This document shows positions 796 through 13,242 of a stretch of 64,000 nucleotides of DNA, piece after piece. Source of the stretch: Verrucomicrobiia bacterium. GTDB taxonomy: Bacteria > Verrucomicrobiota > Verrucomicrobiia > JADLBR01 > JAIBCM01. The notes beneath the pieces were generated by a model. The model made no database searches. It had not been told where the DNA came from and saw nothing but the letters and a program-made list of their open reading frames with translations. The stretch is from positions 22,143-86,142 of the forward strand of contig JAIBCM010000002.1 of NCBI GenBank assembly GCA_019694135.1. The letters are read 5' to 3'. Made by a program: the position numbers and the translations under genes. The first letter of the stretch is position 1; each line of letters begins with the position of its first letter.

Positions 796-3700
796 TTATC
801 CTTTATCTTTTTTAAAAATTTCGCCAATTAAGGTTGCGGCATCGACTCCACCAGAAAGGGATTCTTCAAAACTTCCCTCGACCATTACGGCAAAGGCATA
901 GCGTGGGTTGTCAGCAGGCAAAAAGCCAGCAAACCAAGCGATTTGGCGCGGTTTGGCTTTGCTGCCCACTTGGGCAGTGCCTGTTTTTCCTGCCACTTGT
1001 ATGCCAGAAACTTGTGCTCTTCGGCCTGTTCCTTCTTCTGTTACTGACACCATGGCTTCTTTGACAAGATCGAATTGTTCAGGAGTAAAAGATAAGGTGT
1101 TAAGAATTTCAGGAGGAAACGTTTTTACGGTTTGGCCGTTTTGATCAAAAAATTCGCTAACGATTCTGGGACGATACAAAGTGCCATGGTTGGCAATGGC
1201 TGCAACGGCATTGGCTATTTGCAAAGGGGTTGTCAGGAGATCGCCCTGACCAATCGAAACGTTGGCGACATCACCAGCGCCCATAATGCGACCATATTTT
1301 TTTCGAATGTAGTCAGGTGTTGGCATGAGACCCGCCAATTCGCCGGGTAGGGGAACGCCCGTGATTTGGCCTATGCCAAGATTAGTAGCGACGTTGATCA
1401 AAGCGGTTCGTCCGGTTCGTAAACCTAAGTCGATAAAGTAAGTATTAATGGATTGAGCAAAAGCGTTGCGAAATGAGACGGGATAAGTTTCTCGTGGTAG
1501 ATTGAATCGCACATTGCCAATTTGGTAGTAACCTTTGCAATAAACGATGCGTTCAGGATCAAAAGTGCCTGCTTGTAAAGAAGCTAACGTAGTGATGATT
1601 TTAAAGACCGAACCAGGCGGATGAAATTGTCTGATGGCTCGATTTTGTAGTGGGTTATCTTCTGCCTGCAAAAAGCTTTGCCATTTTTCTGAAGATAGAG
1701 CGGGTAAAAAGTCGTTAGGATCAAAAGTGGGTTGGCTTGCCATAGCTACGATATCGCCATTGGTTACGTTCATAATAACAACAGCACCGGCGGCAATATT
1801 TGTTAAACTTTTTTCCACGGCTTTTTGTAGTTCGAGATCGAATGTAGTTCGAATATTTAAACCTGAAGTGGCTTGTTTTTCGATAGCGGTGCGCTGCGTA
1901 AAGCCTTCGGGTGTGGTGGCGATGACAAATTTTCCTGCTTGTCCATTAAGTTCCCTATCAAAAATTTTTTCTAACCCTTCCGCGCCTTGATATTGATCGT
2001 AAATGACTAAGTTAGCTTGATAAGGGCCAATGCGTGGTGTTTGAGCGCGTTGAAGATAGCCAAGAGTGTGGGCAAGCAGTTGGTTTTCGGGATAAACTCG
2101 TTTGGGATAAGTTTGGAGGACGAAACCTTCATCTCTCAATTTACTGTTGTTGAATTGAGAAACTTTTTCGGGTGTTAAATCGCTAATGACAACAGGTTGA
2201 AATCGTTGAAAGTTATAATGGTTAGTCAATGTTTCATTGGAAAAGGTGATGGATTTTTCTAGCCAATTTGAGGCAAGCTCTAATTTGGGTTTAATCCAAG
2301 TTAAGGCTTCTTCTGCTGAGTTTGCTGTTTCTAAGCTTGGCCAGGGCAGAACGAGGCTTTGGCCCGAGAGAGTTGTGGCTAAGGGTGAACCGTTTGCCGC
2401 GACGATATCTCCCCGCAGAGGTGGCATGATATATTCTGCTACGGGAGGAATAGAAGCATGATCGTTTTCCTCGGAAGGCGCTTGAGAAATGAGTTCGGAA
2501 GGATTAGAAAAAAGTGTTTGTAACCAACGAGACCAATCCTCATTTTCTGCAACGCGATTGATGCGTGAGACAGGCAGTGTATTCATAGAGTTGAGCTGGG
2601 ATTGTTTAAGATAAACAAAGGTATCACCTGGGCTGGGAGCAAAACCAGCGAGACCTTGAACGGTTCCAGTATTTTTTTCCACTTCGACTTTGATGAGACT
2701 AGATGGAATCGCAAAATTGGTGGGAGAAGAGGGGAGTCGGTTGACTATTTTTTCCCATAATGGAATGGCTGTTTTCGAGGCCAACGTTTTATTGCCAATG
2801 GAAATGGATGGATCATAACCCACCCACACTCCGGTGACCCAGCGCGGAGTGTAGCCTAGGAACCAAGCGTCTCGCTGATTTTCAGAAAAACTGCTAACAC
2901 CCGTAGCGGGTTGGGTTAAGTCTTGTCGCCATGCTTTGTCTCGGAGAGTTTGCTCTAAAGTTAAGGTCATTTGTTGAGCAGTGAGAGCTTCTAGTTGTGG
3001 CAAACCAGCGACATGAGGTCGGCGATAAAGCAATTTATTTTTTCCGTCGCGAATGGATCGAATAAAGAAAGCTTTTTTCTGGGTGCCTTGGTTAGCCAGA
3101 ATCTGGTAGAGCGAGGTGATCTCCCAAAGAGTTAAAGGTCTAAAATCGTGAAAGGTTTTTGGAAGAAAATTTTCGTCAAACCTAATACCAGTATTTTTTA
3201 GCCACTGCGCTAGATTAGCTAGTCCGATTTGGTGAGCGGTTCGAATGGCCGCGGTTTTATAATTTCCAGCCAAAGCATCTTGCAAAAGAAAAAAGCGTCT
3301 GTTGAGATTTTGTTCTGGATTGCCAAAAGTTATGGCTTGGGATGTTTTGATTTCGGGTTTGTCGATAAAGGAGCTGTCAATGAGAGAAGCTGGGTGCCAA
3401 CCTAGATTTTGCATGGCTAAAGCATATAAAAAAGGGTAGAGTGAAGCGCCATTGTCTCGTTGCGCCATGGTGATGCGATCAAATTGGCTTTGGGTAAAAT
3501 CTCTTCCTCCCACGTATGCTTGAACGGCGCCTTCAACAGCGTCCAAAATTAAAACGGCCGCTTGTAAAGGGCCTGGATTTTCAATAGTTTTGCGTAGGTT
3601 TTTTTCCTGGGTTAATTCCCATTCAACCTGGGTCAGAGTTTCTGAAACTGCCCGCTCTGCTGCTTGTTGTAAAGTTGTGTTGAGCGTAGTATACACCCGG

Positions 3701-4557
3701 AGGCCTTGAGGAAATTCATTTTCTTCGAGTTGTAAAACTTCCTGCAACTCTTGCATGATGAGAGGGGTGAAATATTTGTTTAATCCTACTGAAGTTTCTG
3801 GAACGAGACGAATTCGTTTTTGTCGCGCTTGCCAGGCTTGTTGTGATGTGATGAATTTTTCTTCCACCATGGTTTGTAAAACACGATCTCTTCCCTGAAG
3901 CGCTTTTTGATAGTCGCGTCTCGGTGAGGCGCTATTAGGAGAACGAATTAACCCGGCGAGCATGGCGCATTCCCCGAGGGTGAGTTGTTTAGCTGATTTA
4001 CCGAAATAGCCGCGCGCTGCGGCTTCTAAACCAAAATAGCCTTTGCCGAAATAGATTCGGTTGATGTAATAATCTAAGATCTCCTGTTTGGTAAAATGAT
4101 TTTCAATACGAAGCGCTAAAAAAGTTTCTATTAATTTACGATCCCAAGAGCGTTCAAACATGCCGATAGCATTTTTGGCGAGCTGCTGGGTAATGGTGCT
4201 TCCACCTTGAGTAAATTGGCCTGATTTTAAGTTAACTACGAGAGCCCGAACAATTCCGATGATATCAATGCCGTAATGCCAATAAAAACGACGATCTTCT
4301 GCGGCAATAATAGCTTGGCGCATGAGGTCTGGAATTTCATTATGTTTTAATACGATGCGATTTTCTAATGCAAGTCGTCCGATTTCCTTATCATTATCAT
4401 CATAAAAAATGCTCGTTTCATTGTATTTTGCGAGATCGTTCAGATCGTATTGTTGTGCAAGTTGATAGTGCGTTTTAACTTTGGGATAAAGCAGCCAAGT
4501 CGCTAATGTGATCAAGAGCAGAAAAAAAACTAAGCTTAACGTAAGAAATCGTTTCAT
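796..4557 (-). CDS. Multimodular penicillin-binding protein: GT51 transglycosylase, degenerate class-A transpeptidase, class-B (PBP2-like) dimerisation and transpeptidase module
   Basis: GT51 motifs EDRRFYWHYG and GGSTITQQ are present. The class-A TP region has ASLY in place of SxxK and lacks KTG. The C-terminal module has PBP2-like motifs QPTFDPN, PGSVFK and AGKTGTAQ. I place the start at MKRFLTLSL (ATG at 4555-4557), which overlaps the upstream stop by ATGA. A TM helix follows that start. Confidence 0.85.
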   Translation of the reverse strand: MKRFLTLSLVFFLLLITLATWLLYPKVKTHYQLAQQYDLNDLAKYNETSIFYDDNDKEIGRLALENRIVLKHNEIPDLMRQAIIAAEDRRFYWHYGIDIIGIVRALVVNLKSGQFTQGGSTITQQLAKNAIGMFERSWDRKLIETFLALRIENHFTKQEILDYYINRIYFGKGYFGLEAAARGYFGKSAKQLTLGECAMLAGLIRSPNSASPRRDYQKALQGRDRVLQTMVEEKFITSQQAWQARQKRIRLVPETSVGLNKYFTPLIMQELQEVLQLEENEFPQGLRVYTTLNTTLQQAAERAVSETLTQVEWELTQEKNLRKTIENPGPLQAAVLILDAVEGAVQAYVGGRDFTQSQFDRITMAQRDNGASLYPFLYALAMQNLGWHPASLIDSSFIDKPEIKTSQAITFGNPEQNLNRRFFLLQDALAGNYKTAAIRTAHQIGLANLAQWLKNTGIRFDENFLPKTFHDFRPLTLWEITSLYQILANQGTQKKAFFIRSIRDGKNKLLYRRPHVAGLPQLEALTAQQMTLTLEQTLRDKAWRQDLTQPATGVSSFSENQRDAWFLGYTPRWVTGVWVGYDPSISIGNKTLASKTAIPLWEKIVNRLPSSPTNFAIPSSLIKVEVEKNTGTVQGLAGFAPSPGDTFVYLKQSQLNSMNTLPVSRINRVAENEDWSRWLQTLFSNPSELISQAPSEENDHASIPPVAEYIMPPLRGDIVAANGSPLATTLSGQSLVLPWPSLETANSAEEALTWIKPKLELASNWLEKSITFSNETLTNHYNFQRFQPVVISDLTPEKVSQFNNSKLRDEGFVLQTYPKRVYPENQLLAHTLGYLQRAQTPRIGPYQANLVIYDQYQGAEGLEKIFDRELNGQAGKFVIATTPEGFTQRTAIEKQATSGLNIRTTFDLELQKAVEKSLTNIAAGAVVIMNVTNGDIVAMASQPTFDPNDFLPALSSEKWQSFLQAEDNPLQNRAIRQFHPPGSVFKIITTLASLQAGTFDPERIVYCKGYYQIGNVRFNLPRETYPVSFRNAFAQSINTYFIDLGLRTGRTALINVATNLGIGQITGVPLPGELAGLMPTPDYIRKKYGRIMGAGDVANVSIGQGDLLTTPLQIANAVAAIANHGTLYRPRIVSEFFDQNGQTVKTFPPEILNTLSFTPEQFDLVKEAMVSVTEEGTGRRAQVSGIQVAGKTGTAQVGSKAKPRQIAWFAGFLPADNPRYAFAVMVEGSFEESLSGGVDAATLIGEIFKKDKG

Positions 4558-6620
4558 TGCGTAGCTTCTTCCAATGTTCCCTCGGAAATTTCTTCTGTAG
4601 CCGGCAAAGGTTGTTCCTGTGGAGGTGAAGAAGATTCTTGAGAATAAATGGTGGCTTGAGGAATATAACCCAGTTGTTGGCTTAATGAACCCAACCAGTA
4701 GCATCGCCAAAATTGGCGCAAAGCTTCCATGCGGTCTTGGTCGTCAGGACTCATTTTTAGCACAGTGGCATATTCGTAGATCATGGCTAAAGGGGAGGTG
4801 TCGATATCGACATTTTGTGCTGCAGCCATTCCTTGACGTGCTGTGATTTCAGCGTTTTGTAACATTTTTTCTAGAGCGAGGCGGTTGCTTAAAGACCATT
4901 TTAAAGAATCTAATTTGAGTGAAGCGTTCCAATAAAAATATTTTTCCTTTAAAAGATCGGTTTCTAAAAAATAATTAATATCAAGAAAACATTGGGCGAC
5001 ATCATTGAAAGCAAATGAGGCGGCAGAAGTGGGCTGAGGTTGGGGTGGGCGATAGGCAGGGCCGGGAGTAAAACCGGCGTTCGCCAGAAGTGCACGTGGA
5101 ATTTGATGCGTTTCCCATTTTTTTTCCCAACTACGCTTGATGCGTTGTAGTAAGGTAGTTTGGCTTGCCAAACGAGTGTCCCAAATTAGTGAAGATTGCC
5201 ATTGGCTAGCGCGCTGTTTGATTTGGCCAGTAAAAGATTCACCTTTAGCTAGGAGCGCAGGTGTCAATTGATTGAGCCAATCGGTGGCGCGATGAGAAAA
5301 AGCGGAGGAGTCCGATTTTTTAAAGTTACGCTGGAAAACGGGAAAAATATCTCGGAGTTGGGTCTGATAGGTCACATAATAAAAACCGCTCATGAGCAAA
5401 ATAGCTGCTCGTTTTTTTTCATCTTCGGTTGCATCTGATTGCGAATGCCACGCTTGTCGGGCAATGGCAAGAGGACCCTCCAGTTTGGTTTGAAGAGTGA
5501 GCAACCAGTCATTGCGTTCTGACAAAAATAGACTGAGGCTCAAGTCGTTTTTATCCCATTCTTTATCTTGAGTTTTTTGAATGACGTCATCGAGTAGGCT
5601 TGAGGTTTGAGTGACAAAAGATTTTAATTGAGCTGAGTTTAAGTTAGTTTTGAAAGCTTGAGTGGCGGCGATTTCGCTTGAGGCGTCAATAAGGAGACGA
5701 TAAGCCGCGTAAACTTGGCCAGCTTGGTAAGCTTGCGAGCCTTGTTCAAAGAGCGACAAAGCGCGTTGCCAGATGGCTTGTTCCCAAGGAGAAAGTTGCT
5801 GTAGGGCTTGTGTAGAAGGCCAGAGATTTTTCGTGCGCAACAGTTCGTTAATTTGATTTTGGCAACGTTGCGCTAAAAAACTGAATGTGCTGTTGGAATA
5901 ACGACAGGGTGTGGTATTCCAAGTTGCTGAAGGCAGGCTGTGATCCAATGCTATTTCGGCAGCTTCAGCTAAGTTTTGGGCATAAAAAACTTTTAATTTT
6001 AATGTCTTGGCTTTCGCGGCGGTATCTAAAAGTTTATTGGGATGAGTGCGATCCAAGTGTTGATTGTCAGATAAAATTATTTTTTTTATACCGGTGTTGA
6101 CAGCCAGTTCCATGCGTGATTCAACATTTTGAACAGGACCGAGCGATTGATCGGGTAGTAGAGTAGCGAGAAGTAATGTGTCTTGAGGATAGTCGATGCC
6201 GCAAGCGGTAGCGAGTAAACCGAGCGATAGCGAAGCGCAGCTTTCTGAATCGATGGCACCGCTAAGTTCGCTCAAAACCCAATCAGCATTTTGCCAGGGT
6301 TGTTGCCACAATATTGCACTGGCCAGGGTGGCGGGCCAAAGTTGTTGGGATAACGATTGTGTGGTTTCAGGTGACATAGCACCGTCAAACCGAAAGTTAA
6401 TGGTTTCTGAAGTGGTTTCGATTTGGGGATTCCATTGAATATTAAGTTGGGAGAGTGTGATGTTTGAGTTTTTATCCAAAACGAAAAGAGGAATTTTTTG
6501 TTCAAATAATTCTTCTGTTTTTTTAAATAAAGGGAGCGATGCCCCGTGGGCAGGGAAAATAAAAACAAGAAATAGTCCTAACCATTGGCAGGTTCGTTGA
6601 TAAGAAAAATAATTACACAT
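4554..6620 (-). CDS. Secreted protein with N-terminal Lon-protease (S16)-like domain and long helical C-terminal region
   Basis: Signal-peptide-like N-terminus MCNYFSYQRTCQWLGLFLVFIFPAHGA. The segment DSESCASLSLGLLATACGI...LGPVQNVESRMELAVNTGIKKIIL aligns to the Lon block DGPSAGIAM...[24 protein letters not shown]. The catalytic Lys position reads as Glu. Confidence 0.6.
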   Translation of the reverse strand: MCNYFSYQRTCQWLGLFLVFIFPAHGASLPLFKKTEELFEQKIPLFVLDKNSNITLSQLNIQWNPQIETTSETINFRFDGAMSPETTQSLSQQLWPATLASAILWQQPWQNADWVLSELSGAIDSESCASLSLGLLATACGIDYPQDTLLLATLLPDQSLGPVQNVESRMELAVNTGIKKIILSDNQHLDRTHPNKLLDTAAKAKTLKLKVFYAQNLAEAAEIALDHSLPSATWNTTPCRYSNSTFSFLAQRCQNQINELLRTKNLWPSTQALQQLSPWEQAIWQRALSLFEQGSQAYQAGQVYAAYRLLIDASSEIAATQAFKTNLNSAQLKSFVTQTSSLLDDVIQKTQDKEWDKNDLSLSLFLSERNDWLLTLQTKLEGPLAIARQAWHSQSDATEDEKKRAAILLMSGFYYVTYQTQLRDIFPVFQRNFKKSDSSAFSHRATDWLNQLTPALLAKGESFTGQIKQRASQWQSSLIWDTRLASQTTLLQRIKRSWEKKWETHQIPRALLANAGFTPGPAYRPPQPQPTSAASFAFNDVAQCFLDINYFLETDLLKEKYFYWNASLKLDSLKWSLSNRLALEKMLQNAEITARQGMAAAQNVDIDTSPLAMIYEYATVLKMSPDDQDRMEALRQFWRCYWLGSLSQQLGYIPQATIYSQESSSPPQEQPLPATEEISEGTLEEATQ

Positions 6621-6691
6621 GGAATGATCATTCATTAAGCGATCTGGCGACAAAATCAATGAACAACCCTAATGGGGAGAGAATTAATGAG

Positions 6692-7789
6692 TTAATTCTC
6701 AGTTCTTGTCGTGAGTTTTTTGGCGTCAACGACTAGAAAACGGCCACGATTTTTTCTCGCTAATCCTTCTAAAAATTCTTTTTCATTGGGTTTTTCTGCC
6801 GCTGTGAGGAAATAGATGGCATGTAGTCGCACAGGTTCGGTCAAAGTTTTTTGTAAATCTGCTGTTTGTTTCCAAATTTCTTCAGCAGGAATTTTTCCGC
6901 CTTGAGTTTTATTAGCGTCTCCGTCGGAAATCAGATAAATAATGTCGGGTTGCATGGCGAAAGCTTGTTCAATAGCCAGATCGGTGCGTGTGCCGCCCAT
7001 GCCATCTTCTAAAAGATCCCCACCTATGACGCGCTGTTGTTTGCGGACGCTGGTTTGCGGATCTTCAGAGATGCCTTGAATCCATTTTTTGGCTTCCGCT
7101 TTATTTTGATCGGTAGAGGGAACCAGTTGCGATTTAAAGGCGAGGGAGCCTCCTTCCCAAATAATAAGGCCAAATTGTGTGTTAATACTTAGGCCATCTA
7201 TGAGTTTCATGGCTTCTTGTTTAATCATGTAGTAAGGCATTTTGATCATGTTTCCGTTAAGACTTCGTTCGAACATGGTGTTGGAAGCGTCAACAGCGAT
7301 AACAATTTTAGCGCCGGTGTCTTTGATGCCGAAAAAGCCGACCGAAGAACCATTCCCTACGCCTGTTAAGCCGGCTTTTCCGCCAAAGGAACTGGAACCG
7401 GATAAGGATAAAACGCCATCGGAGATAACGGCGGATGCATTGAGCGGTAAGGATTGGTCGAGAGGAAGTTTAGGCAATGGAGGTAATCCTTTATCCATCA
7501 TGCGTGTACTCGTAAGAGGACTGCTAAAGGCTGGAGTAGAAGCAGCTTCTTCAAAGGCAGCTAGAGCCATTTTTTGTTCACGTTCGGGGGAGGTAATTTT
7601 AAATTTTTTTGGTTCAGCAACAAAAGTAGCAGGCGGAGCGATGAGATATTTGGCCACAATGACGGCACCGGCGATGATACCTGCTAAAATATGAGCGCCC
7701 AGGCTAATCAAAAGGATAGTGATAAGCATTTTTCGGCGTTTATTTTTTTCGCCTACGCCTTCTTTAAGCTGATCTATGCTGATATCCAT
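6692..7789 (-). CDS. Membrane-anchored von Willebrand factor A (VWA, MIDAS) domain protein with TonB-like N-terminal TM helix and Pro-rich linker
   Basis: Start placed at MDISIDQLKEG to avoid overlap with exbD. One TM helix (LITILLISLGAHILAGIIAGAVIV) is followed by a Pro-rich spacer. The VWA domain carries the MIDAS motifs VDASNT, GGTRTDLAIEQA and IYLISDGDAN. Confidence 0.7.
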   Translation of the reverse strand: MDISIDQLKEGVGEKNKRRKMLITILLISLGAHILAGIIAGAVIVAKYLIAPPATFVAEPKKFKITSPEREQKMALAAFEEAASTPAFSSPLTSTRMMDKGLPPLPKLPLDQSLPLNASAVISDGVLSLSGSSSFGGKAGLTGVGNGSSVGFFGIKDTGAKIVIAVDASNTMFERSLNGNMIKMPYYMIKQEAMKLIDGLSINTQFGLIIWEGGSLAFKSQLVPSTDQNKAEAKKWIQGISEDPQTSVRKQQRVIGGDLLEDGMGGTRTDLAIEQAFAMQPDIIYLISDGDANKTQGGKIPAEEIWKQTADLQKTLTEPVRLHAIYFLTAAEKPNEKEFLEGLARKNRGRFLVVDAKKLTTRTEN

Positions 7790-7802
7790 AATTTCGTAAA
7801 GG

Positions 7803-8258
7803 TTATAGGTCAAAATCGTCTTCGGGATCGGAAGCAAATGTGACGCCTTTGATACCTGCCAGGGCACAAGTGTTCATAACATCGATGATGCGTTGATGCA
7901 CCACGCCATCTTCGGGAAAAAGAGTAACTAAAGCTTCGGCTTGGTTAGCATCGCTAGCTTCTTTATAGCGTTTTAAGGTTTCAAGCAATTGAGGCAATTG
8001 TGAGTCGGTGGGACTATCTAAAGTTTGTTCGTTGAGTACGACTTGGCCATTGGCGCGAATTTCGATGCGTTGTTCATCGGGCAGATCGACTGATTCTTCT
8101 TGTGACACGGAGCCGGGAAGTTTGGTGCTGACATCGGCTTCGGGTTTTACGGGTTTGGAAGTCAGAATGTAGAAGAAGAGTAGCAAGAAACATACGTCGA
8201 TCATGGGTGCGATTTGAAGTTCGACTTGAGGATGTTCAGTTTTTTTAGGGGTTGCCAT
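7803..8258 (-). CDS. exbD: ExbD/TolR family biopolymer transport protein
   Basis: N-terminal LQIAPMIDVCFLLLFFYI is the ExbD/TolR TM signature. Length is ~150 aa. Confidence 0.8.
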   Translation of the reverse strand: MATPKKTEHPQVELQIAPMIDVCFLLLFFYILTSKPVKPEADVSTKLPGSVSQEESVDLPDEQRIEIRANGQVVLNEQTLDSPTDSQLPQLLETLKRYKEASDANQAEALVTLFPEDGVVHQRIIDVMNTCALAGIKGVTFASDPEDDFDL

Positions 8259-8264
8259 AATCTT

Positions 8265-8693
8265 TTAATGTTGAGTAGTTCCAAAGATGACTTGAATGGC
8301 TCCGGCTTCTGCAGCGGCTTTCATGACATCTTTGATTTGTTTCGCAGGGGTTTTTGCGTCGGCTCGCACGTAAATGATAAGAGGTGGAACATCGGTAAGG
8401 CGTTGTTTCAGATAGGCTTTTAATTCGCGCATATCCATTTGGCGTTCGCTAGCGAAGTATTGGCCTTTTTCATCGATATTGACTACATCTCGTCCACTTA
8501 AATCTTCCGGCACGACTGAGGACTGGGCGCGAGGCAAGTTAATATTCATGAGTTTCTGGCTTTTAGTTAGTTTGCCAGAGAGCATGAAGAAAAAGAGCAA
8601 GAGCATGGTGACGTCGATCATGGGCGCAATTTGAAGCCCCACTTCTTCGTGAGTCACTTTTCGCGGACGTTTGCGCTGGATTTGCTCTGCCAT
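8265..8693 (-). CDS. exbD: ExbD/TolR family biopolymer transport protein (second copy)
   Basis: The motif LQIAPMIDVTMLLLFFFM is present. The gene is a paralogue of the adjacent exbD. Confidence 0.8.
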   Translation of the reverse strand: MAEQIQRKRPRKVTHEEVGLQIAPMIDVTMLLLFFFMLSGKLTKSQKLMNINLPRAQSSVVPEDLSGRDVVNIDEKGQYFASERQMDMRELKAYLKQRLTDVPPLIIYVRADAKTPAKQIKDVMKAAAEAGAIQVIFGTTQH

Positions 8694-8747
8694 AATTTAA
8701 TTTTATTAACTACTACTCTATTTAGACGTCATCAGGTTGTATTTCAT

Positions 8748-9557
8748 TTAAGATTGGAAATCAGGCCCTACGGGTAAGGTGCTGCCATCATTTTCTCCTG
8801 CTGCAACGGCCGCAGCGGCTAACCCTTCCATGGTGACTTCACCTGTGAATAGATCAAGCATGGTGGAAACGGCTTTATGCACGTCGACCATTAAGGCTTG
8901 AGCTTTGCCGCGGAAGAAGAAGTAAAGGAACATGGAGGGAATCGCGAGCATCAAACCGCCGGCGGTTGCTACGAGCGCTTCACCAATACCGCCCGCCAGA
9001 TCGGTGGCTTCGGCTTTACCGGCAGTCAACGCGCTAAAGGAGTTAATCATACCGCTTACCGTTCCTAACAACCCGATCATGGGCGCCATGACGGCGAGGG
9101 TGTTGAGGTAAGTGATGAGCACTTGCACTTTGGTTTCTTCATGGTAGACGGCATCAGCCACAGCGTTTTCCATGGCAGCTTTGTTAAACATATCTCTTTC
9201 AAAGTTTGCCTTGGTTAAAGCAGAGGTCAGCGTGTGGGCTAATGGCCCGGGATTTTCTTTGCAAATTTGAAAGGCGTTGGGGATGTTGCGTTGGCTCATG
9301 GTTAAGTTTAGTTGGTGGATAACGCTGTCTGGCAGGATTTTTTTTCTGCGTAATTGTAATCCTAAAAATCCGCCTAAAGCTACGCAACCGACTGAGCAAA
9401 GAGCGATGATGTGCATGATGGGACCTCCTTCATGGTAGAGGTCGAGCAAGCTTTTGCTGGATTCAACCTTAGGCGCGGCCCAGGTCGATTGCAAACCGAA
9501 TGTGAGCCATGTCACAAGGATAAGACCGATGTAGTAAAGAGGTTTTAATGTTTTCAT
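8748..9557 (-). CDS. exbB: MotA/TolQ/ExbB proton-channel family protein
   Basis: Signal-like N-terminus followed by three TM helices. The C-terminal block GLLGTVSGMINSF...AGGIGEALVATAGGLMLAIP is typical of ExbB/TolQ. Confidence 0.8.
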   Translation of the reverse strand: MKTLKPLYYIGLILVTWLTFGLQSTWAAPKVESSKSLLDLYHEGGPIMHIIALCSVGCVALGGFLGLQLRRKKILPDSVIHQLNLTMSQRNIPNAFQICKENPGPLAHTLTSALTKANFERDMFNKAAMENAVADAVYHEETKVQVLITYLNTLAVMAPMIGLLGTVSGMINSFSALTAGKAEATDLAGGIGEALVATAGGLMLAIPSMFLYFFFRGKAQALMVDVHKAVSTMLDLFTGEVTMEGLAAAAVAAGENDGSTLPVGPDFQS

Positions 9558-9562
9558 AGAGG

Positions 9563-10447
9563 TTATTGGGTTGTGGTTTCTTTTTCTTCGTTTTGTTCTT
9601 CTTCTTTCTCTTCAGTTTTTACTAAAGGTTTTAATTCTTTTAGCTTGGTTTGAGCACGTGCAAAGATGGAACTTTGCGGGTAATCGGCAATGATATCTTG
9701 CAACACTCTAACGGCTGCTGAAAGATTGGTTTCTGCCAGATAAACGCGCGATGCGCCCCATAAGCCGCGACCCACTTCTTCCTTGAGAGTTGGGTTGAAT
9801 ACGCGGTTATAGAGAAAATGATCCAAAGCAGCGGGATAATTTGTGCGTCCAAGCTCAACTTCGCCCAGTACTAATTGCACGAAGGCGACGATGGAAGAGT
9901 CTTTGGATTGCTCTTCCATTTGTTTGGCCATGACCATGGCTTCTTCGAAACGATTCAGGCCGGCCAAACATTTCACCTTTAATGGAGCGACAAGAAACTT
10001 TCTTTTTTGATTCCAGTCTTGAGCTTCGATTTGTTCCACAGCTTTGAGCGCTTCGTCGAATTGTTTTAGGTCGATCAGTGTTTCAGCGCGGGCAAATAAC
10101 ACCTCACCAGCAGGAGATTCTGGAATGGAAAGAAACGATTGCCAAAATTTCCAAAGCGGGTCGAGAGTTGTTAAGCGCGCGGCTGGATCAGTAGGCAGTT
10201 TGGATCGATCGAAAGTGGCTTCAAAAACGATTTTTTCGATTTGATCTAAATTGTAAGCGCTTTCGGCTTTGCCGCCTCGAAATTCAACTTGAATATAAAC
10301 TTTATTTTTTTCGGAGCGTAAAACTTTGCCTTCAATTTCATCTAAAGTTTTTAAAACTACGAGATCTTGTGCATGAATAGAGGTTAAACCCGCAATAGCC
10401 ATGAGGCCTAACACAAAACTGAGCTGAAAAAAATTCTGTGTTTTCAT
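9563..10447 (-). CDS. Secreted TPR-repeat protein
   Basis: Signal peptide followed by helical TPR-like repeats. The gene overlaps the upstream TPR gene by 4 nt. Confidence 0.6.
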   Translation of the reverse strand: MKTQNFFQLSFVLGLMAIAGLTSIHAQDLVVLKTLDEIEGKVLRSEKNKVYIQVEFRGGKAESAYNLDQIEKIVFEATFDRSKLPTDPAARLTTLDPLWKFWQSFLSIPESPAGEVLFARAETLIDLKQFDEALKAVEQIEAQDWNQKRKFLVAPLKVKCLAGLNRFEEAMVMAKQMEEQSKDSSIVAFVQLVLGEVELGRTNYPAALDHFLYNRVFNPTLKEEVGRGLWGASRVYLAETNLSAAVRVLQDIIADYPQSSIFARAQTKLKELKPLVKTEEKEEEQNEEKETTTQ

Positions 10448-13242
10448 GAGGAGGTTGGCTTGGGTTCCGAAGCCGGGTTGACATTGGCGCCTGGTTTTAA
10501 TTCGGCGAGTCTTTGTTGAGCAGCTTTATATTCTTCAAAACTTGCCAGATCTGCTTCTTTTAAGAAAGCTTCGTAAGTTTCAATCGCTTGAGGTTTTAAT
10601 TGTAAGGTTTCGAGCGCTTTGCCGCGGGCTAAATAAGCTTTTGATACCCAGTCGCGGTAGCGAGCATAGAGAATGTAAATGCGTTCGTAATAAGCGCAGG
10701 CTTCTTTCGTTTTACCCATTTGCTCGTTGAGTTGGCCCAGTTGATAAAGCGCTTGCACCCAGGGCTTGCCCTTGGCAGCAGGAGTTTCCAATATTTTTTC
10801 CAAGGTTGCAATAGCTTCTGGAATGCGTTTTTGGTTTTTGTAAATTTCTACTTTGGATTCTAAGATTTTTGGTAGAAGGATGGAGGAGCCGGATTCAGCT
10901 TCAAAGCGATCAAACATAGCAAGCGCTTTAGTTTCATCTCCTTTTGCTAAGGCAATGAGGCCTAAGCCCGCTAGAGCACGATCGGTGAAACGAGTTTTTT
11001 TAGGAGTGTTGGCCAAGATATTCAAATAAGTTTCAGCTTCGGCATAGCGCTTTTCAGTGACTAACAGTTCTCCCAAGTCAATGCAGAGCCGTTGGGAAAG
11101 TTGTTCCGGTTTGAAGCGATCAGGACGGGCTAATTCTAAAAGCGCAAGACGGGCTTGATCCGGGTTGGAGCGACGTTGGAGTTGAGCAAGAAGCCAGAGA
11201 TAACGCGCAGCTTGTATGGGTTTGCCAGCAGCAAGTAAGTTGTCCTTACCCTTTTCTAGCTCGCTGATCAGAGCTGCTTTATCGTCGACAGTGGGGAAAA
11301 GTTTGGCGTAGCCGATGAAAAGGTCTTCAACAAAATTGCTCTTCAGATCAGAGCCGTATTTTTCCAGGGCAAGTCGGTAAAAACGGCGCGCATCTTCAAT
11401 TTGATCGAGTTGGCGCAAACCCCAACCGGTCCAGTGATAGGCTTCGACAACGCGACCACTATTCGGGTTTTTGTCGATAAATTTTTTGAAATGATCGACC
11501 ATTTTTTCGTATTGTTCAGTAAGTCGAAGCGCTTTGCCAATTTGGAATTGTGCATATTCATAGAGTCGTTCGTTGGCTGGGCCGACTTCGCTAAACATTT
11601 TGATGCCTTCATCGGGATCGCCTTCAGCGAACCAAGCGTCACCAGCTAGGGCGCGCACTTCATCGGTGAGCGGGTTTTGAGGATAGGTTTTTACCCAGTC
11701 CACAAGTTTTTTGCGTGCTTCTTCATATTTTTTTTCGCCATAATCAGCGGCTGCCATGCGATAGATGGCTTCTTCTTTGAAGGTGCCTTGGGGATATTCT
11801 TTGAGATAAAGGTTGAATCGCGTGCGAATTTCAGGGTAGTTTTTTGCAAAAACGGCAGTCATGGCATTCCAATAGAGATTATTTTCTGCCAAGGGACTTT
11901 TAGGAAATTGTTGTCGGAAACGAGCAAAGGAATCGGTGGCTTCTTGATATTTTTCCAGAAAAAGCGCGCTGTAACCGGCCAAAAATAAAACGCGATCGGC
12001 TTGAGGAAATTGAGGATAAAGTTTGGTGTGTTTAGTAAAAACGTTATAGGCATCTTCAAAGCGGTTATTATTAAGATAAGCTTCGCCCTCGAGATAGGCG
12101 GCTTGAGGTGCGCGTGAGTCGTTGGGATAGCGTTTGATGAAAGAGGCGACGAGTTCTTGAACTTTGTCCCAACGTTGTAATTCCACAGCAGCTAGGATGG
12201 CGAGGTAATGACCGACTATGACCGGTTCGGTTCGGGGCTGGGTTTCGGCTACGGCTATAGCAGCGAGATAGCCTTCTCCAGGGCGTTCGCATTGCAGGGC
12301 GCATTGTGCGACACGTAAGTGACGGTTGAGATCGAAAGTTTCCATTTTGGTAAGATTTTCTTTCTCACGAATCAGGCCGTCTTTCATTTGTTGGAGTTGG
12401 AGCGCTTTAATGCTGAGCCCTTGAGCGTAACGGGTAAGTTGTTTTTCTACGTCAGTCAGTAGTTTTTCTTGTCTGTCCAAAATTTGAGCTTTGAGCGGGA
12501 TGAAAAGGTAGCAGCGATAGGCTTTGTTGTATTCTCCATCTTCATAAAAATCGTCGCCTAATTGCATGGCCTGCAGAGCAAGAAGAGCTTGCTGACGAAT
12601 GGGTTCGGGTTTGGCGCGCAAAATTTCTAGCACAGCCAGTGCGCCATCAAGATCACGGCTTTCGAGCAAGCTTTGCAAGCGCATGAGCATGGCGCGTTCA
12701 GCGGTTAAAGGGTCGCGCGTTTTACTGGCAATTTCAAAAAGTGCAGCAGCTTCTTTATATTTTTTTTCTTGGAATTGCGAGTTAGCCATTAACATTTGCG
12801 CTTCGGAAGTTTGCGGCGTGTTAGGATAGTTTTTTAAAAAAGTTTCAAAGGCGCTGATGGCTTCGCTGAATTTTCCTTGTTGATAGCGGGATAATCCTAG
12901 CCAGAAAGACATATCCGGCACGGCCTTGCCTTGTGGATATTCTTTAATATAGGTTTCAATGATGGGCTCGGCCGCTTCGGGTTTTTGTATTTGCAAATAA
13001 GACGCTGCGAGGAGAGGGTAAACTTCGGGTTTTACTTTTTGCGCTTCAGGACTGGAGCCATAGGAGGTTAAAAAATTTTCGTAAATTTTAGCCGCTTCTG
13101 GAAAATTTCCAGCATTAAAAGCGCTTGAGCCACGCTGTAAGAGATCATCCGCTGTGCCAGTGCCAGCTTGGTCTTGTGCGTTCGCCAGAGAGGAAATTAT
13201 CCCTAACGCTACCATCATTACGAAACGCCGAATGCACTTCAC
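10444..13242 (-). CDS. Large secreted tetratricopeptide-repeat protein (932 aa)
   Basis: Signal peptide MKCIRRFVMMVALGIISSLANAQ is followed by many W-LG-Y-A-F-P TPR-type repeats along the whole length. Confidence 0.7.
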   Translation of the reverse strand: MKCIRRFVMMVALGIISSLANAQDQAGTGTADDLLQRGSSAFNAGNFPEAAKIYENFLTSYGSSPEAQKVKPEVYPLLAASYLQIQKPEAAEPIIETYIKEYPQGKAVPDMSFWLGLSRYQQGKFSEAISAFETFLKNYPNTPQTSEAQMLMANSQFQEKKYKEAAALFEIASKTRDPLTAERAMLMRLQSLLESRDLDGALAVLEILRAKPEPIRQQALLALQAMQLGDDFYEDGEYNKAYRCYLFIPLKAQILDRQEKLLTDVEKQLTRYAQGLSIKALQLQQMKDGLIREKENLTKMETFDLNRHLRVAQCALQCERPGEGYLAAIAVAETQPRTEPVIVGHYLAILAAVELQRWDKVQELVASFIKRYPNDSRAPQAAYLEGEAYLNNNRFEDAYNVFTKHTKLYPQFPQADRVLFLAGYSALFLEKYQEATDSFARFRQQFPKSPLAENNLYWNAMTAVFAKNYPEIRTRFNLYLKEYPQGTFKEEAIYRMAAADYGEKKYEEARKKLVDWVKTYPQNPLTDEVRALAGDAWFAEGDPDEGIKMFSEVGPANERLYEYAQFQIGKALRLTEQYEKMVDHFKKFIDKNPNSGRVVEAYHWTGWGLRQLDQIEDARRFYRLALEKYGSDLKSNFVEDLFIGYAKLFPTVDDKAALISELEKGKDNLLAAGKPIQAARYLWLLAQLQRRSNPDQARLALLELARPDRFKPEQLSQRLCIDLGELLVTEKRYAEAETYLNILANTPKKTRFTDRALAGLGLIALAKGDETKALAMFDRFEAESGSSILLPKILESKVEIYKNQKRIPEAIATLEKILETPAAKGKPWVQALYQLGQLNEQMGKTKEACAYYERIYILYARYRDWVSKAYLARGKALETLQLKPQAIETYEAFLKEADLASFEEYKAAQQRLAELKPGANVNPASEPKPTSS

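Follow-up and report, generated by a model that had tools for sequence, protein, structure and literature searches.

A predicted exported pseudo-protease of Lon S16 fold, encoded next to a fused penicillin-binding protein in Verrucomicrobiota

We analysed a stretch of 64,000 nucleotides from a Verrucomicrobiia bacterium (assembly GCA_019694135.1, contig JAIBCM010000002.1, positions 22,143 to 86,142 of the forward strand), here called the window, whose own numbering is used throughout. It contains a gene, X (4554..6620, minus strand; from the open reading frame list and its translation, with the stop at 4554-4556), whose product of 688 aa is a predicted exported protein with a Lon protease-like domain in which the catalytic residues are replaced. 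The gene lies directly upstream of the gene for a fused penicillin-binding protein (PBP), and the same order recurs in distant relatives. Based on this genome context, we propose that X is a non-catalytic partner of the fused PBP, acting as a regulator, a scaffold or a peptide-binding adaptor, a proposal to which we give an even chance of being correct.

The reading frame of X is intact and begins with ATG at 6620. An alternative ATG at 6634 gives a form of 693 aa, which is 100% identical to the NCBI 'hypothetical protein' K1X66_02595 from a Verrucomicrobiae metagenome-assembled genome; residue numbers in this work follow the form of 688 aa. At the N-terminus (…QRTCQWLGLFLVFIFPAHG|ASLP…) an h-region, LGLFLVFIF, is followed by A-H-G|A, and residues 1-26 (…LGLFLVFIFPAHG|AS; 6543..6620, minus strand) form a predicted Sec signal peptide, as judged by a heuristic reading of the sequence. 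By the same reading, a lipobox Cys is absent at position +1 of the leader (…FPAHG|AS). Residues 5-19 are modelled by AlphaFold2 (AF2) as a helix with a low predicted local distance difference test (pLDDT) score, and signal-peptide-like hydrophobic leaders are found at the N-terminus of most X homologues, across the family. X is therefore probably Sec-exported and periplasmic.

Following the leader, residues ~35-235 of X (5916..6518, minus strand) form a catalytically degenerate domain of Lon S16 fold, as established by Foldseek, a family profile and hhalign. Taken alone, the sequence of X has no Pfam or NCBIfam match at E <= 0.1, and a search of PDB sequences with either X or a profile of four sequences returns A. 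fulgidus Lon domains as the best matches, at non-significant E-values of 0.3-0.6. A word-indexed homologue search found just four close relatives, of 100, 89, 73 and 55% identity, and an exhaustive HMMER search with the profile of these four collected 192 proteins at E <= 1e-3. The comparisons below use two alignments, A2, with about 35 full-length X relatives at 17-31% identity, and A3, whose members, at least 65 in number, are more distant and 600-750 aa long. The A3 consensus reads DGPSAG…MTGTIxPDGTIGPVGGIxxKxxAA, and Pfam Lon_C is matched by 62 of 65 A3 members (best E 1.5e-16) and by 10 of the 35 A2 members. The inactive-Lon-like family ChlI (PF13541) is matched by 17 of the 35 A2 members, with a best E of 3.7e-6, X itself being unmatched.

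The A2 profile matches the Lon domains in the PDB at E 3.4e-11 for M. jannaschii (1xhk), 1.4e-10 for A. fulgidus (1z0c) and 1e-6 for E. coli (1rr9). When A2 and A3 are compared with hhalign, they align at 100% probability (E 1.4e-54) over 581 columns that cover both domains of the protein, so the Lon domain and the C-terminal domain are both common to A2 and A3. An AF2 model of full-length X built on the A2 alignment (pLDDT 85.8, predicted template modelling score 0.86) has the E. coli Lon domain 3wu6 as its best Foldseek match, with E 3.3e-7 and a template modelling score of 0.72 (target-normalised) over ~197 columns, and the top 50 matches are exclusively Lon-type, comprising Lon proteases and the Lon-like domains of RadA (5lkq) and BrxL. 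The framework motifs PDG and GxKR(V/I)I(I/L)P are kept in the X family. Thus, the Lon S16 homology of X is unambiguous and far beyond chance once homologues enter the comparison. The original prediction, made from the window sequence, had placed a Lon S16 domain behind a signal peptide; both are borne out, the leader by heuristic reading and the domain by the family profile and the AF2 model though not by the sequence of X alone; the domain, proposed at residues ~55-200, spans residues ~35-235. Outside this domain X consists of the signal peptide and a helical domain, with no AAA-type Pfam match. When the A3 profile was used to look for relatives with a name, solely 'hypothetical' proteins and canonical LonA came back.

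The catalytic dyad of Lon is lost in the X family. We fixed the register by phmmer and hmmsearch against Lon structures, by hhalign and by a MAFFT alignment with the dyad-bearing relative P0036, and confirmed the corresponding codons. In every gapless alignment Glu126 (codon 6243..6245, minus strand) falls at the column of the catalytic Ser, between Ser125 and Ser127, and in the profile alignments Arg169 (codon 6114..6116, minus strand) falls at the column of the catalytic Lys. Among the 35 A2 members the nucleophile column (126) holds Gly in 14, Ser in 6, Glu in 5, Asp in 4, Ala in 4 and Pro in 2, and the Lys column (169) holds Arg in 30, His in 2, Lys in 2 and Cys in one, the Cys occurring in a PBP-linked clade. 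The columns on either side of the nucleophile vary as well: column 125 is Ser in 14 members, Pro in 8, Ala in 6, Thr in 4 and another residue in 3, and column 127 is Ser in 7, Val in 6, Asn in 5, Ala, Leu in 4 each, Thr, Ile in 3 each and another residue in 3; Ser127 of X is Ala in the homologue P0004, which is 53% identical. A shift of the loop by one residue, which would place Ser127 at the nucleophile site, may be conceivable from the sequence, and the column counts show that such a shift leaves the conclusion of a dead site unchanged.

Both Ser and Lys are kept in just 2 of the 35 A2 members (P0036 and P0063), as opposed to 62 of 65 A3 members. The broken dyad of the original prediction therefore stands, with 33 of 35 homologues lacking the pair, but its residue assignments do not: it had the Ser retained and the Lys replaced by Glu, and it asked whether homologues conserve Ser but not Lys; the Ser column is itself variable and the Lys column is mostly Arg. 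Judged by these residues, the X family is a stable lineage of predicted pseudo-proteases that derives from dyad-bearing, presumably active secreted S16 proteases. Three members of A3 (P0061, P0107 and P0144; 3/65) have independently lost both Ser and Lys, with G/F, A/Q and G/F at the two positions, respectively, which indicates that pseudo-protease derivatives of the secreted S16 family arose more than once. P0061 comes from an assembly labelled Kamptonema cortianum.

The rest of X had been described as helical, and this agrees with our model: residues 243-651 (4668..5894, minus strand) form an all-alpha C-terminal domain according to DSSP on the full-length AF2 model and to a separate model of the domain, which reaches a pLDDT of 89.5. 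No Pfam family covers this domain, and in Foldseek no PDB structure matched the isolated domain at better than E 0.66. Its best-conserved motifs are GFxPGxAY and LEALRQ(F/Y)WRC. By hhalign the domain is homologous to the C-terminal domain of the dyad-bearing A3 relatives, in which the second motif is kept as …ALxxYW…, and this persistence indicates that the helical domain is older than the loss of catalysis.

Behind the helical domain, residues 655-688 (4557..4658, minus strand) form an acidic, Pro-rich tail that is disordered by its pLDDT of < 50. Such tails are variable, and both the paralogue of X and other lineages have far longer ones. The paralogues at loci L014, L016, L019-L023, L025, L026, L028-L030 and L033, and also the proteins of L012, L018, L027 and L031, have disordered tails of up to ~250 aa that repeat short motifs, for example NIPVAPIAK(P/V/A)EDY and (P/R)RA(I/L/M/E)PV; these repeated motifs may be short linear binding motifs. 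X proteins of the L012/L018/L031 clade terminate in …FFRR, and those of the window clade have the short acidic tail only.

The protein encoded directly downstream of X (796..4557, minus strand; Pfam, NCBIfam and motif scan) has 1253 aa and combines a transmembrane anchor, a GT51 domain, a class-A transpeptidase, a PBP2 pedestal and a second transpeptidase. Pfam reports Transgly, Transpeptidase, PBP_dimer and Transpeptidase, and NCBIfam reports PBP_1a_fam at E 1.5e-154 and pbp2_mrdA at E 6.3e-133. By motif scan, the GT51 motif EDRRF (4285-4299, minus strand) is intact, and so are the motifs of the PBP2 module (SVFK 1600-1611, SIN 1444-1452 and KTG 973-987, minus strand). In an alignment with PBP1a of P. 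aeruginosa (4oon), GASLYP (3433-3450, minus strand) takes the place of GSSFKP in the class-A transpeptidase, and GVSS that of GKTG, with VSS replacing KTG at 2878-2901 (minus strand), and both the Ser and the Lys of SxxK are gone. The 119 fused homologues (41-81% identity) are alike, with GALLQP and MPG in the first transpeptidase and with the second transpeptidase and GT51 intact. As read from these motifs, the class-A transpeptidase of the fused PBP is dead and the PBP2 transpeptidase live, and the predicted design is family-wide, a class-B transpeptidase replacing class-A transpeptidation inside one polypeptide.

A gene for a Cache_3-Cache_2/PAS sensor lies directly downstream of the fused PBP at three independent loci (L007, 13437-14435; L040, 4317-6095; and the P0174 locus). 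It is found with or without X upstream of the PBP and is absent in the window.

As the original prediction stated, the stop codon of X and the start of the PBP overlap in an ATGA (4554..4557, minus strand; sequence and codon check), with TGA at 4556-4554 and ATG at 4557-4555. Its further statement that the two proteins are made stoichiometrically reads too much into this overlap, since the gap between the genes is 13 to ~380 nt in other lineages. The order of X followed by a fused PBP is found in the window clade (L001-L004, with a TAATG overlap in L003 or a near-overlap), in a Methylacidiphilales/LW23 clade (L005, L006, L013, L015 and L032), in L007 with a gap of 13 nt, in a Verrucomicrobiia clade (L012, L018 and L031), in L027, in L035+L037, where it is divided between contig ends, and in the deepest clade, L041, whose protein is ~22% identical to X and where the ATGA overlap occurs again. 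Flanking genes other than these two vary between the linked loci. In a rough neighbour-joining tree of the X family, PBP-linked lineages occupy all deep branches, which suggests that the pairing is ancestral to the pseudo-protease family. Two dyad-bearing relatives, P0036 (a member of A2) and P0132, both from the wider dyad-bearing set and the only two whose context was inspected, do not adjoin a PBP.

X is also the fastest-evolving gene of the operon: in L001 it is 72% identical and its neighbours are 78-92% identical, and in L003 the figures are 55% against 88% and 69%. Such a rate suits a protein with a binding or regulatory role, not an enzyme. At the deep-branching P0052 locus a gene with LysM and Amidase_2 (peptidoglycan amidase) precedes X, and the gene after X, of >868 aa and cut by the contig end, is possibly a fused PBP. 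The contigs QAZA01000010 and QAZA01000009 of Verrucomicrobia bacterium LW23 (L015 and L032) give identical match statistics for X and PBP, which suggests a duplicated region or assembly redundancy.

In the window, X and the PBP, which are probably co-transcribed, are the last two of eight co-directional genes with gaps of -4 to ~70 nt. The block upstream of X (6692..13242, minus strand; Pfam and NCBIfam) encodes, all on the minus strand, a TPR protein of 932 aa with eight CpoB/YbgF-like stretches (10444-13242; E 2.3e-60), a TPR protein of 294 aa (9563-10447), ExbB/TolQ (8748-9557), two ExbD/TolR proteins (8265-8693 and 7803-8258) and, where TonB or TolA would be expected, a transmembrane protein of 366 aa (6692-7792). 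The latter has no Pfam match and is possibly vWA-like, a weakly supported reading that draws on weak PDB matches to ITIH4 (E 0.012) and to the BatA-like 4jdu (E 0.03). The order of the block is kept in L001, and the part comprising the transmembrane protein, X and PBP is kept in L002-L004; the ExbBD and TPR genes are absent from all other X-PBP loci. Because the upstream block is confined to the window clade, the conserved core consists of X and the PBP. A promoter and terminator scan of the block performed no better than on shuffled sequences and gave no convincing terminator between the genes. Over the window (1-64000) the GC skew is positive in nearly all 2-kb bins, reaching 0.39 at 40-52 kb, and the cumulative skew climbs almost monotonically; the window seems to lie inside one replichore, and its skew at 40-52 kb is unusually strong.

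These findings can be joined into the following scheme. The N-terminal domain of X would descend from secreted, ATPase-less Lon/S16 serine proteases that already bore the helical domain of ~420 residues. One Verrucomicrobiota lineage then lost the dyad, the Ser position becoming variable (Glu126 in X) and the Lys being replaced by Arg169, and the gene would have been fixed directly upstream of the fused PBP with its GT51 domain, dead class-A transpeptidase and live PBP2 module. The protein would no longer be able to cleave peptides by the Lon mechanism, while the retained groove of the Lon fold, the helical domain or both may bind the synthase or its peptide substrate, and could in this way modulate peptidoglycan synthesis, scaffold it or position it. 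A physical or regulatory interaction between X and the PBP is what we infer from genome context. More tentatively, and with the odds leaning against it, X may be a subunit dedicated to regulating or scaffolding a Verrucomicrobia-specific 'all-in-one' synthase. It would then be a PBP cofactor of a new class, one that arose out of a periplasmic protease, and its former substrate groove might serve to recognise stem peptides or the dead transpeptidase domain.

Several observations weigh against a partnership with the PBP and favour instead a periplasmic pseudo-protease with a general role in the envelope, whose adjacency to the PBP would reflect shared envelope-related expression. Such a protein could trap substrates as a chaperone or holdase, or it could act on the active secreted S16 proteases, either as a decoy or by regulating them. 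At fourteen GTDB loci that carry a paralogue or orthologue of X, the flanks retrieved (up to 8 kb) contain no PBP. One paralogous clade of X and a large 'DGTGIDAAL' clade of Methylacidiphilales are never PBP-adjacent, their neighbours are variable, and a search around the unlinked paralogue revealed no conserved neighbour. As a rule the unlinked proteins have a greater length (810-950 aa) and Pro-rich tails, and they are equally dead, so the catalytic loss is not tied to adjacency. Three genomes hold both linked and unlinked copies. When loci were picked from the PBP side, all three informative ones (the fused PBPs P0174, P0204 and P0259) had no X within +/-6 kb, which tblastn bore out for L038 and L039, and for the uninformative L040; adjacency is thus dispensable in large clades. 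All these counts come from a family sampled in part, the GTDB scan having been made with two peptide patterns. The co-occurrence proposed by the original prediction therefore holds in that the X-PBP order recurs in all deep branches, and fails in that unlinked paralogues and fused PBPs without a nearby X exist. On the other side, the two genes stay paired as identity falls from 72% to ~22%, and they do so in at least seven separate lineages whose flanks are otherwise unrelated; stop and start codons overlap or nearly overlap in three of these, and the two dyad-bearing relatives inspected are not PBP-linked. The persistence of the pair would be hard to obtain without selection on the pair itself, and we regard a purely general role as possible but rather unlikely.

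Two further explanations concern the window clade and the active site. X could be a component of an ExbB/ExbD Tol-like machine that couples the motor and the CpoB/YbgF-like TPR proteins to peptidoglycan synthesis; Tol-Pal/CpoB controls PBP1B in E. coli, and the tight spacing of the eight genes, the lack of a convincing terminator between them and the order kept in L001, and in part in L002-L004, would be in keeping with such a machine. We nevertheless consider it improbable, because ExbBD and TPR genes accompany X in the window clade only and so cannot define the ancestral function, and because the promoter and terminator scan did no better than shuffles. X could also be an active peptidase with a non-canonical site, made of Ser125 or Ser127 with Arg169, or of Glu126, that processes the PBP or another envelope protein. 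In the window clade the nucleophile position is indeed flanked by two Ser, the residue at the Lys position is basic (Arg or His), and both the fold and its framework motifs are kept. Yet columns 125-127 are unconserved, with Ala for Ser127 in P0004 and mostly Gly at the nucleophile column, one PBP-linked clade has Cys at the Lys position, and no functional S16 peptidase with Arg substituted for the general-base Lys is known to us. An active peptidase is accordingly very improbable, and we retain a non-catalytic association with the fused PBP as our working interpretation.

The fold of X is common to the Lon proteolytic domain (MEROPS S16, Lon_C PF05362; LonB 1xhk and 1z0c, E. coli 1rr9 and 3wu6), with which it shares the helix after the nucleophile loop, PDG…G-P-V and GxK+VIIP. 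Unlike Lon, which is cytoplasmic, X carries an export signal, has no AAA+ module, has its dyad replaced and is fused to an unrelated helical domain of 420 aa. The secreted S16 proteins of A3 (600-750 aa, all named 'hypothetical') resemble X in architecture, length and N-terminal leaders but differ in that 62 of 65 keep the DGPSAG…K dyad and match Lon_C. YlbL/SepM (PDZ + Lon_C) likewise has a Lon domain outside the cytoplasm without an AAA+ motor, and X relatives weakly match NCBIfam SepM_fam_S16 (E 1e-9 to 2e-3). YlbL and SepM, however, are proteolytically active and have a PDZ domain together with a membrane anchor, whereas X has no PDZ, a helical domain instead and no dyad.

As non-proteolytic modules of Lon fold without the dyad, RadA/Sms, ComM and ChlI are similar to X, and Lon protease-like domains have been described in RadA and ComM (PMC11612176). 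The Lon-like domains of RadA, ComM and ChlI are cytoplasmic and sit on ring-forming DNA or Mg-chelatase motors with an ATPase, as opposed to X, which is ATPase-less, has a signal peptide, is linked to a cell-wall synthase and has no ATPase or helicase core that we could find. With LpoA, LpoB, LpoP, CpoB and EnvC/NlpD the likeness is conceptual only: X would be, as they are, a periplasmic, non-enzymatic and partly helical protein proposed to act on a peptidoglycan enzyme, and it evolves fast, but we found it related to none of them in sequence or fold. EnvC and NlpD are degenerate-LytM pseudo-enzymes that regulate cell-wall enzymes, and in E. coli the Lpo genes lie apart from the genes of their PBPs. 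The original prediction saw in X a possible Lpo-like regulator of the PBP or a peptide-binding module. X is no Lpo homologue: it shows no homology to LpoA or LpoB in Pfam, NCBIfam, PDB sequence or helical-domain fold searches, and it has no lipobox.

Inactive cytoplasmic Lon-like domains and ATPase-less extracytoplasmic S16 proteases are thus already known. The X family itself is uncharacterised and absent from Pfam and NCBIfam, and in these databases and in the literature searched we found no description of an exported dead Lon domain that is tied to a PBP and fused to such a helical domain; the literature searches brought up neither this family nor any PBP-linked pseudo-Lon. To our knowledge, detailed accounts of peptidoglycan synthase regulators exist for just a few model phyla, and no such regulator is known for Verrucomicrobiota. 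If the tie to the PBP is not functional, X is just a divergent pseudo-protease. If it is functional, X would be the first Lon-derived periplasmic pseudo-enzyme to act on cell-wall synthesis and, like EnvC/NlpD, a further case of a dead enzyme recruited as a regulator. A cultured carrier of the gene pair exists, Verrucomicrobia bacterium LW23 (L015), which makes this idea testable.

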